Below, piece by piece: positions 2,495-41,965 of a stretch of 64,000 nucleotides of DNA. The notes below the pieces were generated by a model, which made no database searches, was not told the origin of the DNA, and saw only the letters and a program-made list of their open reading frames with translations. Source of the DNA: Minisyncoccota bacterium (lineage in GTDB: Bacteria; Patescibacteriota; Minisyncoccia; Phycocordibacterales; UBA9973); NCBI GenBank assembly GCA_041665925.1, contig JBAYHW010000001.1, positions 11,282-75,281 of the forward strand. The letters are read 5' to 3'. The position numbers and the translations under genes were made by a program. The stretch's first letter is position 1, and every line of letters starts with the position of its first letter.

Positions 2495-5260
2495 TTATTC
2501 CATGCTCGTATATCTCGCCATGATTTCAGCTTCCACTTCGGCGCGGTCGCGACCATATTTTACATACGAAAGTTCTTTCAAGCTATCTACATTCTCCATA
2601 TTTCCTTTTTCTGGAGCGAGGGTATGCAAGTTAAAGGGTTTAGTTGGCTGGCCTTTGACTAGCATCGTCACATACGCATTATAGTTATCAAGTTTGGTTA
2701 TATCATGCGCAGTAAATTGTGGCTTAAATTTTGGTTCCAAGAATGTAGCGTCTTCTGTGCCCACACGGAACACAGCCATGGATCCGACGTTACCGAACAC
2801 GGCATTTTTAATATTTTCTTCCAACTGGGTAATGTACTGATGCGCAATATTGAGAGAGAGACGATATTTACGAGCCTCGGACAAAATAGAAGCGATAGAT
2901 TCTGTGGTCACGTTTTGGAATTCGTCAATGTAGAGATAGAAATCATTCATCGGCTTGCCGAACATGTCTACTCGGGAAAGTGCCGCCATTTGAATCTTCC
3001 CCACCAAAACAAGTCCAATCAAATTTGCATTTATGTCCCCGAGTCTACCTTTAGAAAGATTTACTAAAAGAATTTTCTTCTCGTCCATTATTTTTCTAAA
3101 ATTGAAAACAGAATTCTGCTGAAGCACCACCGGGCGCATAATGTCGTTTGAAATAAAGTTATCGAACTTGGAAGAAATATAAGGCACGAAGTTTGCAAGC
3201 GATTGGTCCCCTGTCGTCTGCTCTGCTGAAACCCAGAATTGTTTAATGATCGGATTCTTACATCTTGCAAGCTTCATATCTCGAAATTCTTTATCTCCCA
3301 AGACCCGAGTAATCTCAAGAAGCGTGGACCCAGACTCTGGGTCTTCCATAACCAGAAAGGCGCTATTTCTGAAGTATTGCTCAAACATCGCTCCGCCTCC
3401 GACTTTCATATCAAAAAGTTTATTAAAAATTCCCATCATTTCATTTACTACGAAAGTCTTCTGTTCTGGATATTTCGGATCATACTCTAGCATGTTGAGC
3501 CCCATAGGTCGCGCAGTATATGCTGGATCAAAATATATAACATCATCTATGCGCTCCTTTGGAATACGAGACAGGATAGTCTGGATGTCTGTGCCGTGTG
3601 GGTCTATATAACAGCAACCATCCCCATTCCTGATGTCCTGTGTAATCATATTGAGCATGATATTTGTCTTACCTGTTCCAGTCTGACCTATTACATACAT
3701 ATGTCGCATACGGTCCTCGCGAGCCATATGAATCTCTGTATCCCGACCTCTATAACTATTAACCCCGAGGATTATGCCTTCCTGCCCCATCTCAATAGGC
3801 GCCGGAGCGATGCCTGCTTTTGCTTCTTTCAATTGTGGCTGACTGCCTATGCCTACTGGAAAGTGAAAGACTGAAGAGAGTTCTTTCAGATTTAGCGGTA
3901 AGATTTTATCGTGTGAAAATGTGCGGTAAGAAAAATCATGGAAAAGCTTTTTTAGATCTCCTCCAGTCGCTTGTTCAAAAAGAAAAGAATTACTAGCCGC
4001 TTCAGAAAATTGGTTGAAAGAAGACTCTATTTCTTTCAAAATTGCCTCAGCACGTTCTTTCGTTTCCCCAGAAGCAATAATTCTAATATTGGCTTTCATA
4101 ATTGTGCTTTTTATTTTATTCCCTATTTTTTCTGCTGCACCTTCATCTACCGCCCGCCTACCTTTTATATATTTCTCTTTTTTATCTTCTTCGGTTTTTT
4201 CATGCCCGAAGATAAGGTCTTTTCCGGCTTTCAGAAAGGCTTTATTGAATTTATAGAAATTGTCCGCCGCATGTTTGACTGAGATGCCATCCTTGACGTC
4301 GTCTAAAATCAAATGAAATTCGTTGATAAACTTGTCTCCGGCTGGAGCAACAACAATCTGGATAGCCGCTCCTTCTCCTGAAGTTTTCAACTTAGAGAAA
4401 ACATTTAAAATTGGATTCATCGGGTCATGCTCGATGTTGTCGTAAGTTTTTATAGGTAAGACAGAACGTTGTGTAAAAGAAGCGTATGCGCCGACAGACC
4501 CTCCATTTTCGTTAAAAATATTATAGTCATCCGTAACTTCGCGAATCTTAGCATTATGGTAAAAAGCTAAAACTTGTTTTTCAAAAAGAGATAGGTGCTT
4601 GTTTGGAATAGCTGCATACACGACGACTTGATCGCTTTGATTTCCTAAAGCTACCTCAAGAACAAAGTAATTTTCTTTTTCGTTGTATTTCCCCTCTCCA
4701 ATAGACTGCATCCCAGCATAAAATTGCTCCATGGCTCCTATGAACTCTTTAAACCCTTTAGACTTATCTGCTTCATCTGTAGGAGGTGGAAGCGTAATTT
4801 CAAACAGAGTCATGTTGAGAGCTTTATAAACAGGTGTGCCTTCTTTAAAATCAAGCCCTATCTGACCAGTCTTCAAATATTGAATTAAAATACGGTGAAA
4901 GTCGTCTTCGATATGCGGACTCCCCATCGCTTGCACAACCGAGAGAGCGTTTCGGACACCTTTGGTTATCACGATACCCAGAAGCTCTTCCATGACGTTA
5001 TCGTGAGATTCGGGCTTAAGCGCGAGCACAATACCTTCAGCTTGTTGTTCTCCTATTACTCTATCTGGGTGAACCAGATTTTCAGCTGGTATTTTTTTAT
5101 ATTCACCTATGACATCGCGAGTAGCGTGCTCGCTTGCATGTTCTACGTGTCCGATTTTAATTAGTTGCTCTTCGCGAGCCTTCACGTGAGCACGTAAATA
5201 GTCTAGCTCCTCTTCTGGGCTTTTAAACTTCGGCATCTCTTTAAAGAATGTCGGGTTCAT
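2495..5260 (-). CDS. VirD4/TraG-like (AAA_10/DUF87-type) P-loop ATPase, ~480-aa unknown N-terminal region, no TM helices
   Basis: Walker A 'VIGQTGTGKTN', Walker B 'LYIDEFQN', coupling-protein-like 'HQYITQLEE..FGN'. Confidence 0.55.
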   Translation of the reverse strand: MNPTFFKEMPKFKSPEEELDYLRAHVKAREEQLIKIGHVEHASEHATRDVIGEYKKIPAENLVHPDRVIGEQQAEGIVLALKPESHDNVMEELLGIVITKGVRNALSVVQAMGSPHIEDDFHRILIQYLKTGQIGLDFKEGTPVYKALNMTLFEITLPPPTDEADKSKGFKEFIGAMEQFYAGMQSIGEGKYNEKENYFVLEVALGNQSDQVVVYAAIPNKHLSLFEKQVLAFYHNAKIREVTDDYNIFNENGGSVGAYASFTQRSVLPIKTYDNIEHDPMNPILNVFSKLKTSGEGAAIQIVVAPAGDKFINEFHLILDDVKDGISVKHAADNFYKFNKAFLKAGKDLIFGHEKTEEDKKEKYIKGRRAVDEGAAEKIGNKIKSTIMKANIRIIASGETKERAEAILKEIESSFNQFSEAASNSFLFEQATGGDLKKLFHDFSYRTFSHDKILPLNLKELSSVFHFPVGIGSQPQLKEAKAGIAPAPIEMGQEGIILGVNSYRGRDTEIHMAREDRMRHMYVIGQTGTGKTNIMLNMITQDIRNGDGCCYIDPHGTDIQTILSRIPKERIDDVIYFDPAYTARPMGLNMLEYDPKYPEQKTFVVNEMMGIFNKLFDMKVGGGAMFEQYFRNSAFLVMEDPESGSTLLEITRVLGDKEFRDMKLARCKNPIIKQFWVSAEQTTGDQSLANFVPYISSKFDNFISNDIMRPVVLQQNSVFNFRKIMDEKKILLVNLSKGRLGDINANLIGLVLVGKIQMAALSRVDMFGKPMNDFYLYIDEFQNVTTESIASILSEARKYRLSLNIAHQYITQLEENIKNAVFGNVGSMAVFRVGTEDATFLEPKFKPQFTAHDITKLDNYNAYVTMLVKGQPTKPFNLHTLAPEKGNMENVDSLKELSYVKYGRDRAEVEAEIMARYTSME

Positions 5261-10357: not shown

Positions 10358-10660
10358 TTATTTTATTCTAATCTTCTTGCCTTTGATATTTAGACGTTTG
10401 CGAATCTCAGAAAATTTCTCTACTTTAGACGCAAGCTTATCTTTCTCGATAACTAGAACTTTTTGAATAGACTTGAACTGATATCCTCGATTCTTTGGCA
10501 ACTTCTTAATGATATCACGAAGTTCTGGGCGACGTTTATTCCCGGCACGAGCTGTCTGCCCCTTACCTCCACGACCAGAAGTCTTAGCGTGTTTACCGCC
10601 ACGGCCTACGATCCTGTCCTTTTTATTCTTATGTACTCTTTTTAGGTTATGTATTTGCAT
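10358..10660 (-). CDS. rplO: 50S ribosomal protein L15 (short, 100 aa)
   Basis: 'GRGGKHAKTSGRGGKGQTARAG' L15 N-terminal signature. Confidence 0.7.
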   Translation of the reverse strand: MQIHNLKRVHKNKKDRIVGRGGKHAKTSGRGGKGQTARAGNKRRPELRDIIKKLPKNRGYQFKSIQKVLVIEKDKLASKVEKFSEIRKRLNIKGKKIRIK

Positions 10661-10732
10661 CCCGGTACTAAAATTTTAATTTATAATCTTTATCTTTATG
10701 CCCCGTAATCAAAAATTTAGTACGGGACAGGT
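10661..10732 (-). repeat. 72-bp structured intergenic element, copy A (fills the rpsE-rplO spacer, ends at the rplO ATG)
   Basis: 68/72 identical to 35104..35175 in the same orientation relative to the flanking genes; internal hairpin CCCGTA/TACGGG. Confidence 0.6.
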
Positions 10733-13032: not shown

Positions 13033-13503
13033 ATGACAGATTCGAATATGGAAGTAAGTGATAGAGATATAATGTCTTTAGCTCTAAATGAAGCGATATC
13101 TGCTTTTGATAGGGGAGAGTGCCCCGTGGGTGCTGTCATAGTAAAAAATGGAATTATCATAGCAAAAACAAGCAATAGAGAAGAAGAGCTAAATGATCCT
13201 ACGGCTCACGCAGAAATTCTGGCACTAAGAGAAGCGGGTAAAATTCTCAATAAACACACTTTTCGTGACTGCGTAATCTATACAACCTTGTGGCCGTGCC
13301 CAATGTGCGCAAATGCTATGTTGAGAGCCAAAATTCCTAAAGTAATATGCGGAGCAAAATCTTTCAAATTCATCTACGAAGACACATTTAATCCCTCACA
13401 TGTGATTACAGAAGGACCAATTATGAATGATGAATGCAGGGATATCTTTGTTAAATGGGCAAAGAAAACAAACAGAGAGTTTATTTTAGAGGGTGATAGT
13501 TAA
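13033..13503 (+). CDS. tadA: tRNA-specific adenosine deaminase
   Basis: 'HAEILALREAG' and 'PCPMCANAM' CDA zinc motifs. Confidence 0.8.
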   Translation: MTDSNMEVSDRDIMSLALNEAISAFDRGECPVGAVIVKNGIIIAKTSNREEELNDPTAHAEILALREAGKILNKHTFRDCVIYTTLWPCPMCANAMLRAKIPKVICGAKSFKFIYEDTFNPSHVITEGPIMNDECRDIFVKWAKKTNREFILEGDS

Positions 13504-20543: not shown

Positions 20544-20565
20544 GGAACTAAAATTTTTAACTTAA

Positions 20566-35103: not shown

Positions 35104-35175
35104 ACCTGTCCCGTACTAAATTTTTGATTGCGGGGCATAAAGATAAAGATTATTAATTAAAATTTTAGTAATGGG
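35104..35175 (+). repeat. 72-bp structured intergenic element, copy B (thyA-folA spacer, ends at the folA ATG)
   Basis: 94% identical to 10661..10732. Confidence 0.6.
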
Positions 35176-35667
35176 ATGATTTCATTAATCGCAGCCATAG
35201 GGAAAAACAATGAACTCGGGAAGGGCAATACTTTGCTATGGTCAATGCCAGCAGATATGAAACATTTTATAGAAACTACTACGCTCCACGCCGTGGTAAT
35301 GGGAAGAAAAACTTTTGAATCCCTACCAGGCCCGCTCCCCAATCGCAGAAATATAGTCATCACGCGAGACTTAAATTATAAAAAGGAGGGGGTTGAAGTG
35401 GTTCATTCGCTCGCCGAAGCTTTAGACTTATTCCCAGATCAAAATGAGGAAATTTTTATGATTGGTGGAGCAGAAATATATAAACAAACTATGCCTATAG
35501 CCGACAAATTATATATTACCCACATTGATGCAGAAGAAAGTGCCGCAGATAGCTTTTTCCCAGAAATTATTCCAATAGTCTGGAACGAAGTCTCACACGA
35601 AGAACATAAAAAGGATGAGAAAAATCCTTTTAATTACACTTTTTCAGTTTATGAGAAATTTATCTAA
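35176..35667 (+). CDS. folA: dihydrofolate reductase
   Basis: 'ISLIAAIGKNNELGKGNTLLW...VVMGRKTFES'. Confidence 0.8.
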   Translation: MISLIAAIGKNNELGKGNTLLWSMPADMKHFIETTTLHAVVMGRKTFESLPGPLPNRRNIVITRDLNYKKEGVEVVHSLAEALDLFPDQNEEIFMIGGAEIYKQTMPIADKLYITHIDAEESAADSFFPEIIPIVWNEVSHEEHKKDEKNPFNYTFSVYEKFI

Positions 35668-40610: not shown

Positions 40611-41033
40611 CTATTTTACTTCGATGCCCATAGATCGAGCACTCCCAGCAATAATATTTATTGCGCCTTCGTCATCTTTTGAGTTCAAATCTTGCATTTT
40701 TTTCTTAGCTATTTCAAGTGCTTGCGCTCGAGTAATTTTCCCAGCCTTAGTGGCTACGTTCTTCCCAGAACCTTTCTCTATCCCAGCTGCTTTTAAAATA
40801 AGCCCAGTAACTGGAGGGGTTTTAACCACGAAATCATAACTTCGGTCTTCATAGACAGTAATAGAAACTCCGACTTTATCTCCAGCCATTTTAGCTGTAG
40901 CCGCGTTAAACTTGGTAACAAAGTCTCCGATGTTTATCCCGGCCTGCCCGAGCGCTGGTCCAAGTGGAGGAGCAGGAGTTGCTTTAGCCGCTTGTATTTG
41001 TAGTTTTATTTTCTTTGTAATTTTTTTTGCCAT
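40611..41033 (-). CDS. rplK: 50S ribosomal protein L11
   Basis: L11 sequence. Confidence 0.9.
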
Positions 41034-41613: not shown

Positions 41614-41799
41614 CTAAAATCCGATTATCTTCTGTAACCCTTGAGCGAAAATAAAATCAAAAATACCCAAATAGTATGAGATAACTACAGATAAGATGAT
41701 GACTATCAGGGTATAGTACAAAGTCTGGTTACGGGACGGCCAAATGACGTGTTTTAGTTCTGTCTTTGTTTCTTTTAAATACTCAGTAAGTTTTGACAT
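41614..41799 (-). CDS. secE: preprotein translocase subunit SecE
   Basis: 61 aa, single TM, directly upstream of nusG. Confidence 0.7.
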   Translation of the reverse strand: MSKLTEYLKETKTELKHVIWPSRNQTLYYTLIVIILSVVISYYLGIFDFIFAQGLQKIIGF

Positions 41800-41893
41800 C
41801 CCATTAGAAAATTAAAATAATAAACTTTACATTTTACATACGTCCCTTGATTTTCTAACGGGACAAGTATTTTTACATAAAGGTTCTTAAAAA

Positions 41894-41909
41894 AGCCCCT
41901 CGCAGGGCT
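41894..41909. terminator. intrinsic terminator (agccc-ctcgca-gggct) after the SIMPL-domain gene
   Basis: hairpin plus T-run on the minus strand. Confidence 0.5.
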
Positions 41910-41965
41910 TCTTTAAATATACTCTTTTTACTCACAATAGTCAACCCAGCGAAAATAGGGTGATT

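Follow-up and report, generated by a model that had tools for sequence, protein, structure and literature searches.

Correia elements (NEMIS/CREE) are dispersed Neisseria repeats of ~70–150 bp that duplicate a TA target, lie in either orientation and at variable distance from genes, and carry IHF and promoter motifs. REP/BIME palindromes are 20–40 nt long, have a GTAG head, are linked to RAYT transposases and are located after genes. The element described here comes from a 64,000-nt stretch of a Minisyncoccota bacterium contig (JBAYHW010000001.1, positions 11,282–75,281; called the window below), where near-identical copies fill the spacers before rplO and folA. It resembles Correia elements and other repeats of the miniature inverted-repeat transposable element (MITE) type in being short, dispersed, bounded by inverted repeats, present in many copies, and present or absent at a given site. 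Nearly all of its copies end exactly at the start codon of the gene that follows, and its two ends form an RNA helix that in the predicted fold takes in the AUG.

A repeat family at start codons

An earlier note, made from the letters of the window alone, had reported a 72-bp element present twice, with 68 of 72 positions identical and both copies ending at an ATG. Direct comparison and a repeat finder bear this out. Copies A and B (Table 1) differ at four positions; with the ATG included the repeat measures 75 nt at 95% identity and is the sole long repeat of the window. Each of two sub-patterns of 22–25 nt has exactly two occurrences in the window, where shuffles give an expectation of 0.00. 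A third, diverged copy directly before secE (copy C), which the note did not contain, was found by covariance model R1, whose E-values are rough; on the fetched loci (L numbers below) the same model gave further diverged members.

Two scans sampled the family. For scan 1, 19 nt of the 5′ arm were run against a single genome from each species, which gave at least 119 stretches in at least ~58 species-level assemblies; the matches listed are all in Paceibacteria-type metagenome-assembled genomes (MAGs), with up to eight per assembly. Because that sample fixes the 5′ arm, scan 2 was run on metagenome contigs with 19 nt of the 3′ arm only, the ATG being left out of the pattern, and it gave at least 121 matches. 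Copy counts of both scans are lower bounds, at least ~250 copies and at least ~58 species in all, and the two samples may share organisms, at least one contig (598,563 bp) being common to both. Proportions given here and below for positions, subtypes and contexts hold among the matches listed.

The 3′ arm is complete in 114 of 121 scan 1 matches, and 112 of those 114 end in GGG directly before ATG. In scan 2, where the pattern did not include it, ATG comes next in 111/121, and a 5′ arm lies within 110 nt in 108/121; 'AC' stands directly before the arm in 95 of 101 copies. Complete copies are in sense orientation to the downstream gene. The downstream open reading frames (ORFs) have a median length of 191 aa (scan 1), with N-termini that are canonical for S12, S16, L17, S9, Obg, ClpP, MetK, GyrB, SecY, NusG and others. 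The 105 downstream proteins belong to at least 81 unrelated families, an open-ended gene set that makes up no functional regulon and lacks conservation between species. Leaving aside the copies that served as search seeds, the fetched sequence has about one per 50 kb, and three lie in the 64-kb window; as a rough estimate from the fetched loci, this suggests roughly 10–40 copies per genome.

Among the matches listed, the family is so far found only in Nomurabacteria-like Paceibacterota, tiny bacteria of groundwater that belong to the candidate phyla radiation (CPR) and are without Shine–Dalgarno (SD) signals. Viral contigs scanned with the 5′ arm gave no match. Rfam 15 gave no gathering-score match to the element in the window and none at E ≤ 1 on four element-bearing loci; over these, and over the loci that resemble a non-coding RNA (below), it matched tRNAs only. 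The literature on Nomurabacteria, Parcubacteria, CPR, leaderless genes, SD, MITEs and inverted repeats yielded no description of the element, and the family is apparently undescribed.

A few relatives depart from the position rule. Two orthologous long-type copies (L062:698–805 and L118:4945–5043) end in GGG-ATT (ATTAATACT...) instead of GGG-ATG; ATT may be the start codon here, or the site may have decayed. In L040:4210, L162 and L245, ATA replaces ATG, and the next ATG is 6–10 nt downstream. The same arms, GGATCCCGTACTAAATTTTT ... TTAAAATTTTAGTACTGGGAT, occur without a following ATG in L143 (minus, ~1790–2300), L168 (minus, ~2750–3120) and L246 (three metagenome contigs). There they are followed by two conserved hairpins, CCCCGmACCAGAGC..GCTyGGTACGGGG and GCGGGTGATGGCGAAACTCC...GTGCGACCACCCGC, and have a conserved upstream segment, tRNA genes nearby and no Rfam match; these loci may be an unannotated non-coding RNA bearing the same helix. 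There are also miniature palindromes with the same ends (TCCCGTACGAAAT...ATTTCGTACGGGA, GTCCCGTAGTGAGC-TTTG-CTCTACTACTGGGAT), perfect or near-perfect, some of which are not beside an ATG (Table 1).

The long-range helix

Copies are ~70–75 nt long, some ~105–110 nt; they start with AC(C/U)UGUCCCGUACUAAAUUUU and end with UUAAAAUUUUAGUAC(U/C)GGG, followed by AUG (alignments A3 and A5). Pairing of the two ends gives P1, a helix of ~19–25 bp with a conserved bulge, whose last pairs, U-A, G.U and U.G, are with the AUG. The note had seen that the 5′ arm is complementary to the 3′ end, and this long-range helix is indeed what copies A (−19 kcal/mol) and B (−18 kcal/mol) form in their minimum free energy (MFE) fold. 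It is also the MFE fold of copy C (−18.6 kcal/mol, z −3.1). The z-scores for A and B are −2.5 and −2.95, antisense folds much less well, and in the MFE fold of copy A both the A and the U of the rplO AUG are base-paired. Among 110 distinct copies, 108 have the P1 base and the A of AUG paired in the MFE fold, and 108 of 110 fold more stably in sense than in antisense (−19.0 versus −13.9 kcal/mol), the G.U asymmetry expected of a helix at the RNA level.

In the 3′-anchored alignment 99.1% of cells are paired. Changes in the core of the 5′ arm mostly keep a standard pair: at column 5, G to A makes A-U with the U of AUG, and at columns 8 and 13, C to U makes U.G. Two copies depart from this with an A at column 10, counted as unpaired in the fixed register. 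Diverged arms covary, GUACUAAA/UUUAGUAC becoming GUUAGAAA/UUUCUAAU in copy C and others; further covarying sets are GUUAAAAA/UUUUUAAU, GUUAUAAA/UUUAUAAU and GUUAGAAG/CUUCUAAC, and L129 has a quite different one. Over twelve diverged arm sets the duplex energy is about −17.7 kcal/mol for cognate arms versus −11.5 for non-cognate arms. Duplex energies were used for covariation across the family because the MAFFT alignment A4 misplaced a one-base length difference against a single consensus structure. An extension of P1 past the AUG was rejected, since no covariation links position 3 of the element (C/U) to the +4 base.

Two interior subtypes and their contexts

The earlier note also described a small hairpin, UGUCCCGUA/UACGGGGCA, and proposed two mutually exclusive helices. 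The hairpin, here called P-alt, folds at −9.9 kcal/mol in both copies, the A-to-G difference between them making a U.G pair, and both helices hold up in the family: P1 is kept in ~99% of cells, and P-alt is far stronger than shuffled controls in its subtype. As a general feature the hairpin holds for one subtype, the alt type; about a third of copies lack it and have an upstream ORF (uORF) in its place.

The alt type makes up ~55–60% of copies and carries P-alt as a competing 5′ hairpin. The first 46 nt fold at −10.9 kcal/mol versus −5.2 with a shuffled interior (63 copies), and three pairs are changed on both sides with pairing kept (G-C to A-U, U-A to C-G). All three window copies are of this type, and the diverged copy C has its own P-alt, GUCCC/GGGAC (−8.7 kcal/mol), with the same 13-nt loop despite its different sequence.

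The uORF type (~30% of copies) has no hairpin (−1.1 kcal/mol) and an ATG in an A-rich context. Its uORF has 10 codons, for example MTTIINNLKF (...NLKF-stop), and closes with a UAG in the 3′ arm that leaves 7 nt to the main AUG. The frame of this UAG is shared by 36/70 interior ATGs, and 23 give exactly 10 codons. Judged by their reading frames, copies of this type appear to carry a leader-peptide-like short ORF ending near the main start; the window copies do not. The two designs align over their full length, and intermediates exist. Four uORF-type copies (L186, L207, L209 and L227) have an extra stem-loop, ACGrCTnyCGyC, in the 5′ arm between CCCGTA and CTAATTTTT.

Most copies follow a gene closely: 76/114 lie after a same-strand stop, mostly by 1–11 nt with a mode of 5–6, distances that match the native stop–start spacers of these genomes. 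In another setting (23/114) an extended −10 box, TGnTAnnnT, lies 8–11 nt upstream; at that spacing the A of 'AC' takes the place that the A of ATG has in leaderless genes. Going by these spacings, the element fits exactly in between, with the native spacer (or the −10-to-start distance) before it and the ATG after it. The subtypes divide between the two settings. Promoter-proximal copies are 0/27 of the uORF type versus 20/51 of the alt type in scan 1 (Fisher p = 6e-5), and 0/28 versus 16/36 in scan 2 (p = 2e-5); the uORF type is found only between cistrons.

Filled and empty orthologous sites

In the closest relatives found (S5 identity 93% and 89%) the rpsE–rplO spacer is 4–5 nt long (TAA-AATTT-ATG) with no element, and the rplO coding sequence aligns from the same ATG; the element is absent from this site in L004, L005, L008 and L009. 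Between thyA and folA, two relatives have an overlap or a 6-nt gap (0–6 nt spacers) and no element; L010–L013 lack it, and L014/L039 carry it with a different interior. At secE the orthologous site of L014 is empty. These empty sites at rplO, folA and secE mark the element as insertional, and not as a conserved leader of those genes. In Nomurabacteria RIFCSPLOWO2_01_FULL_42_17 the thyA–folA spacer is 78 nt long, with both ends the same as in the window copy and a different interior without UACGGGGCA, so that the conserved parts are the two ends and not the small hairpin.

Lineages with a DHFR 51–100% identical to that of the window have the element at the thyA–folA junction, and lineages interleaved with them lack it; different subtypes occupy the same site across lineages. 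Repeated insertion at a hotspot would fit this patchy presence, and so would an ancient presence followed by losses; the latter would mean that the arms were held invariant while the proteins diverged by half. Interior similarity among alt-type copies is 0.748 within an assembly versus 0.774 between assemblies. Copies within a genome being no more alike than copies between genomes, a recent intragenomic burst or concerted evolution was rejected; copies scatter around one cross-species consensus, and A and B are both near it. The 5′ 'AC' was assigned to the element because the empty sites lack it.

The same comparisons bear on the element as a selfish or near-neutral palindromic repeat (MITE or REP-like), with inverted repeats that serve a DNA mobility enzyme and an RNA helix that is a by-product. 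Start-codon sites would then be the only tolerated, or the targeted, place in a genome with 1–9 nt spacers. The terminal inverted repeats agree with this, as do at least ~250 copies across species before at least 81 unrelated gene families, the empty orthologous sites for all three window copies with patchiness at folA, and the related short perfect palindromes elsewhere. However, random insertion followed by filtering would give variable 3′ junctions, and sense orientation with zero spacing to ATG is seen in 92–98%. No target-site duplication is visible when filled and empty sites are compared at rplO, folA and secE, and among ~250 fetched loci there was no case of arms flanking a long ORF, as an autonomous partner would have. 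The G.U asymmetry favours sense RNA, the subtypes are tied to expression context, and the similarity values give no sign of recent bursts. We consider this explanation doubtful.

Translation signals of the host

The S5 and DHFR homologues carry the labels Candidatus Paceibacterota or Nomurabacteria, and the host is a Nomurabacteria-like Paceibacterota with no SD signal and many leaderless genes. The earlier note's remark that no SD is present was true, but this is a trait of the whole genome and not of the element: SD-like motifs lie 5′ of 8/78 window genes versus 7.2 ± 2.7 in random windows. Nine extended −10 boxes in the window end 5–8 nt before starts, and across ~1000 ORFs of related loci there is a TATAAT peak at −12; together these are a signature of leaderless mRNAs. 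The anti-SD motif is reported to have been lost in a subgroup of Parcubacteria that overlaps the group lacking uL1 (PMC9297842). In the window there is no rplA after rplK (40611–41033), and the ribosomal-protein operon is without rpmD. The 16S rRNA 3′ end was sought for complementarity with the 3′ arm in the fetched loci, and those loci contain no 16S gene.

Sequences like the 3′ arm, without a 5′ arm, also stand before rpsJ. The tuf–rpsJ spacer of the window (20544–20565, minus) reads TTAAAAATTTTAGTTCC-ATG, and the spacer before rpsJ in L004 (1153–1178) reads TTAAAATAAATTTAGTTCA-ATG. The 3′ arm of the element may imitate, or stem from, a native initiation region.

A proposed gate on translation initiation

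With the family, its position, its helices, its subtypes and contexts, and its pattern of presence and absence observed as above, we favour, at about an even chance, the reading that the element, in its dispersed copies, gates translation initiation at the RNA level for whatever gene follows. We infer that it is transcribed as drawn and that P1 blocks initiation: P1 would pair the two ends in the mRNA with the AUG in its last base pairs, and the start codon would be hidden. P1 could be opened in three ways. In the subtype found in the window, at 5′-terminal and some internal copies, P-alt would be transcribed first and tie up the 5′ arm. In the uORF subtype, at internal copies, a ribosome on the 10-codon ORF would traverse the 3′ arm as far as a stop 7 nt short of the AUG. 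At intercistronic copies a ribosome terminating on the upstream gene, typically 5–6 nt before the helix, would melt P1. The element would thereby gate or couple initiation in a lineage relying otherwise on leaderless mRNAs and very short stop–start spacers. Over evolutionary time the element is insertional: orthologous sites either have it or lack it, and a copy always stands exactly where the native spacer (or the transcription start) gives way to the ATG.

The earlier note had left the choice between a cis-regulatory RNA and a miniature mobile repeat, and each option is partly supported while neither is enough alone. Mutually exclusive helices, one of them predicted to mask the start, agree with the first, but the element is not a leader specific to rplO or folA, given the empty sites and at least 81 families; an open-ended gene set with polymorphic sites does not fit a gene-specific regulatory leader. 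As to the second, the element is insertional and has many copies, but a plain MITE is unsupported, since >90% of copies abut a start codon in sense orientation. That regularity of position and orientation does not fit such an element: the many further copies do exist, at positions that are not random.

Several points weigh against the gate. P1 is ~9 kcal/mol more stable than P-alt, so that the start would be masked at equilibrium and the proposed opening would have to be kinetic or driven by ribosomes. The statistics of P-alt are modest, the 3 pairs (5 cells) changed on both sides being equalled by 11/500 shuffles. The formal covariation score of P1 on alignment A5 equals that of shuffles, because the 3′ arm is fixed by the search pattern. 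Arms of the main family are near-invariant, and P1 covariation was read from a dozen diverged members and from comparisons of energy instead of from a deep alignment. Transcription start sites were placed from −10 motifs only, and neither an insertion mechanism nor a target duplication was found for the element. Arm sequence, and not just pairing, is conserved across species whose DHFR is only 51–84% identical. Masking alone is insufficient for such conservation, which makes a trans-acting partner of the arms (a protein, a nuclease or rRNA) a likely candidate on the sequence evidence. Finally, the zero spacing to ATG is explained at least as well by cleavage that makes leaderless mRNAs.

By analogy, the geometry of a stop, a stable hairpin and a start at the 3′ foot resembles short-ORF-dependent shunting or termination–reinitiation. 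A bolder reading, to which we give a substantial though less than even chance, is a portable initiation cassette for a lineage without SD, either a bacterial analogue of ribosome shunting or relay or a punctuation signal that is cut to make leaderless mRNAs, with a candidate factor reading the arms and with insertion aimed at start codons. In its shunting or relay version, termination would occur 5–6 nt before the hairpin and initiation would resume at the AUG at its 3′ foot, the uORF serving as the relay in one subtype.

Other mechanistic explanations

Cleavage at the foot of the helix is the main mechanistic rival. RNase III, or a hairpin-specific enzyme, would cut near the 3′ base of P1 and release a leaderless or near-leaderless mRNA from the AUG; the cut would also separate cistrons of different stabilities. 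RNase III cleaves the hairpins of Correia elements, and structure-guided cleavage frees mitochondrial mRNAs in leaderless form. The exact GGG|AUG junction in >90% of copies, which this account explains well, is as a 5′-terminal AUG would need it, the host has a strong leaderless signature (TATAAT at −12, nine extended −10 boxes), and a long, bulged, sequence-conserved helix suggests a specific protein partner. A simple cleavage signal, however, needs neither an AUG held in the helix by conserved U.G, G.U and U-A pairs nor a competing hairpin or uORF, and promoter-proximal copies would gain a leader merely to lose it. We judge processing to be rather unlikely. Neutral selfish DNA, a switch worked by ligand or heat, and an operator or promoter in the DNA have less in their favour.

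A sensor switch, whether a thermometer or the target of a ligand or protein, would make P1 and P-alt the OFF and ON states under a global signal and would co-regulate scattered genes. It draws on the mutually exclusive helices, the occluded start codon and the strong conservation of arm sequence. The interior, however, is variable in sequence and length (70–110 nt), with no conserved unpaired core and no candidate ligand pocket; one third of copies have no P-alt, the genes are not a functional regulon and are not conserved between species, and no Rfam family matches. A switch of this kind is in our judgement very unlikely.

A DNA-level signal, that is, a portable promoter or an operator for a dimeric protein at the palindromic TAAAATTTTA/GTAC motifs, has in its favour the palindromic sub-motifs in the arms and a TTGATT...GATTAT arrangement in the alt subtype, yet it is extremely improbable given an empty consensus promoter scan at copies A and B, host promoters of the extended −10 type that lie upstream of the element, diverged arms that keep pairing (including G.U pairs that are A/C mismatches on the other strand) and an orientation strictly linked to the gene.

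Window copies and flanking genes

Table 1. Positions of element copies, their helix strands and the adjoining genes in the window, with related miniature palindromes from fetched loci
Feature	Position	Strand	Description
Copy A	10661..10732	minus	72 nt, ACCTGTCCCG...GTACCGGG; fills rpsE–rplO spacer; alt-hairpin subtype, intercistronic; R1 99.5 bits
Copy A, P1 5′ strand	10711..10729	minus	UGUCCCGUACUAAAUUUUU; MFE fold and pair counts on family alignment
Copy A, P-alt 3′ strand	10699..10707	minus	UACGGGGCA; partner UGUCCCGUA in 5′ arm, 13-nt loop, −9.9 kcal/mol
Copy A, P1 3′ strand and rplO AUG	10658..10679	minus	UUAAAAUUUUAGUACCGGG plus AUG (10660–10658); MFE fold
Copy B	35104..35175	plus	72 nt; fills thyA–folA spacer; alt-hairpin subtype, intercistronic; R1 92.4 bits
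Copy B, P1 5′ strand	35107..35125	plus	MFE fold
Copy B, P-alt 3′ strand	35129..35137	plus	UGCGGGGCA; U.G wobble at the position differing from copy A
Copy B, P1 3′ strand and folA AUG	35157..35178	plus	UUAAAAUUUUAGUAAUGGG plus AUG (35176–35178); MFE fold
Copy C	41800..41868	minus	Diverged, 69 nt, ACTTGTCCCGTTAGAAAAT...ATTTTCTAATGGG; directly 5′ of secE ATG (41799–41797); R1 33.5 bits, E=7e-4
rplO	10358..10660	minus	Shortened L15, 100 aa; TIGR01071 E=2e-7, below curated cut-off; synteny rpsE-rplO-secY; start codon adjoins copy A
folA	35176..35667	plus	DHFR, 163 aa; PF00186 E=2e-59; start codon adjoins copy B
secE	41614..41799	minus	61 aa; PF00584 at L002 16439–16624 (= window 41614–41799); start codon adjoins copy C
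Miniature palindromes	L089:1729–1772, L027 ~520, L038 ~2877, L048 ~6232, L066:5487–5524		Look like small versions of the hairpin

Gene starts in Table 1 were taken from ORFs and N-terminal similarity. Copy A begins 4 nt past the stop of rpsE (PF00333/PF03719) and copy B 3 nt past that of thyA (PF00303); in copy C the arms carry compensating changes. Promoter and terminator scans of copies A and B found neither promoter nor terminator inside the elements. Near copy C the promoter scan gave three promoter-like sites versus 1.2 expected, one of them on the opposite strand and overlapping the 3′ end of the element. A conserved hairpin with a T-run and a short loop, GCCCTGCGAGGGGCTTTTTT, lies 5′ of secE in the window (41880–41910, minus) and in L014 (~5095–5115), from which secE would begin a transcription unit.

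The window rplO spans only the first two thirds of L15. In the ribosomal-protein operon a dCMP/cytidine deaminase gene (13033–13503, plus) lies on the opposite strand between rplE and rpsH, and three deaminase-family genes occur within the 64-kb window.

Significance

In at least 58 species the element recurs as a near-invariant RNA cassette, placed exactly at start codons, which it would mask, and with two predicted routes of unmasking sorted by expression context. How Parcubacteria without an anti-SD (PMC9297842) start translation, at internal cistrons especially, is a question on which the family gives a concrete handle. It also raises the question of how a repeat is delivered to, or kept only at, the base before ATG in genomes nearly without intergenic DNA. 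Covariance model R1 could improve the annotation of start codons and operons in these MAGs, and the cassette, if portable, could serve as an insulating initiation part.

Comparison with known systems

Correia elements form mRNA hairpins, are co-transcribed with their neighbours and can alter downstream expression; the likeness here is the predicted hairpin leader. Unlike them, our element has no visible target duplication, is in sense orientation, abuts ATG with its 3′ end in >90% of copies, and has P-alt or a uORF inside. A MITE in the strict sense was considered for the inverted repeats of ~19–25 nt, which are present, and was rejected on the lack of duplication and on the fixed position and orientation (112/114 and 111/121 at ATG). 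REP/BIME sequences share the character of an extragenic imperfect palindrome, often intercistronic near stops, and REPs act on mRNA stability and on translation of flanking cistrons. That identification was rejected as well: our element is 70–110 nt long, begins ACYTGTCCCG with no GTAG head, and lies against start codons.

Two other classes of mobile DNA were rejected. The ends ACYTGTCCC / GGGATG are not the R''/R' cores (RYYYAAC...GTTRRRY) of integron attC sites, and the copies are scattered before housekeeping genes. An IS200/IS605-derived PATE does not agree with a single hairpin made from two ends, with variable bases 5′ of 'AC', with empty sites that lack AC, or with an orientation that follows the gene.

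Among regulatory leaders, a riboswitch was rejected because, though alternative helices are present, the interior is variable in sequence and length and one third of copies have no P-alt. ROSE and fourU thermometers, the MS2 coat–replicase control and some ribosomal-protein operons also have a helix that sequesters the initiation region and must be melted there, whether by heat, an alternative fold or an upstream ribosome. Of the traits of an RNA thermometer, the AUG is occluded in the predicted fold, and there is no restriction to a functional gene class. Leaders of the ROSE, fourU and MS2 type are gene-specific, vertically inherited and serve small regulons, whereas our element is a near-identical cassette before at least 81 families with empty orthologous sites.

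The arrangement of cauliflower mosaic virus (CaMV) 35S shunting, of termination–reinitiation and of bicistronic design is similar, in that an upstream ORF stops a few nucleotides (mode 5–6) before a hairpin and the next start is at its 3′ foot. Shunting depends on the cap and belongs to eukaryotes or viruses, and bicistronic design is a product of engineering, whereas our element is dispersed in bacteria and is known from sequence alone. We know of no natural dispersed bacterial counterpart of short-ORF reinitiation devices. The element is perhaps best placed among the dispersed palindromic intergenic repeats that act on mRNA, where its position rule and its two putative built-in opening devices would be unusual.

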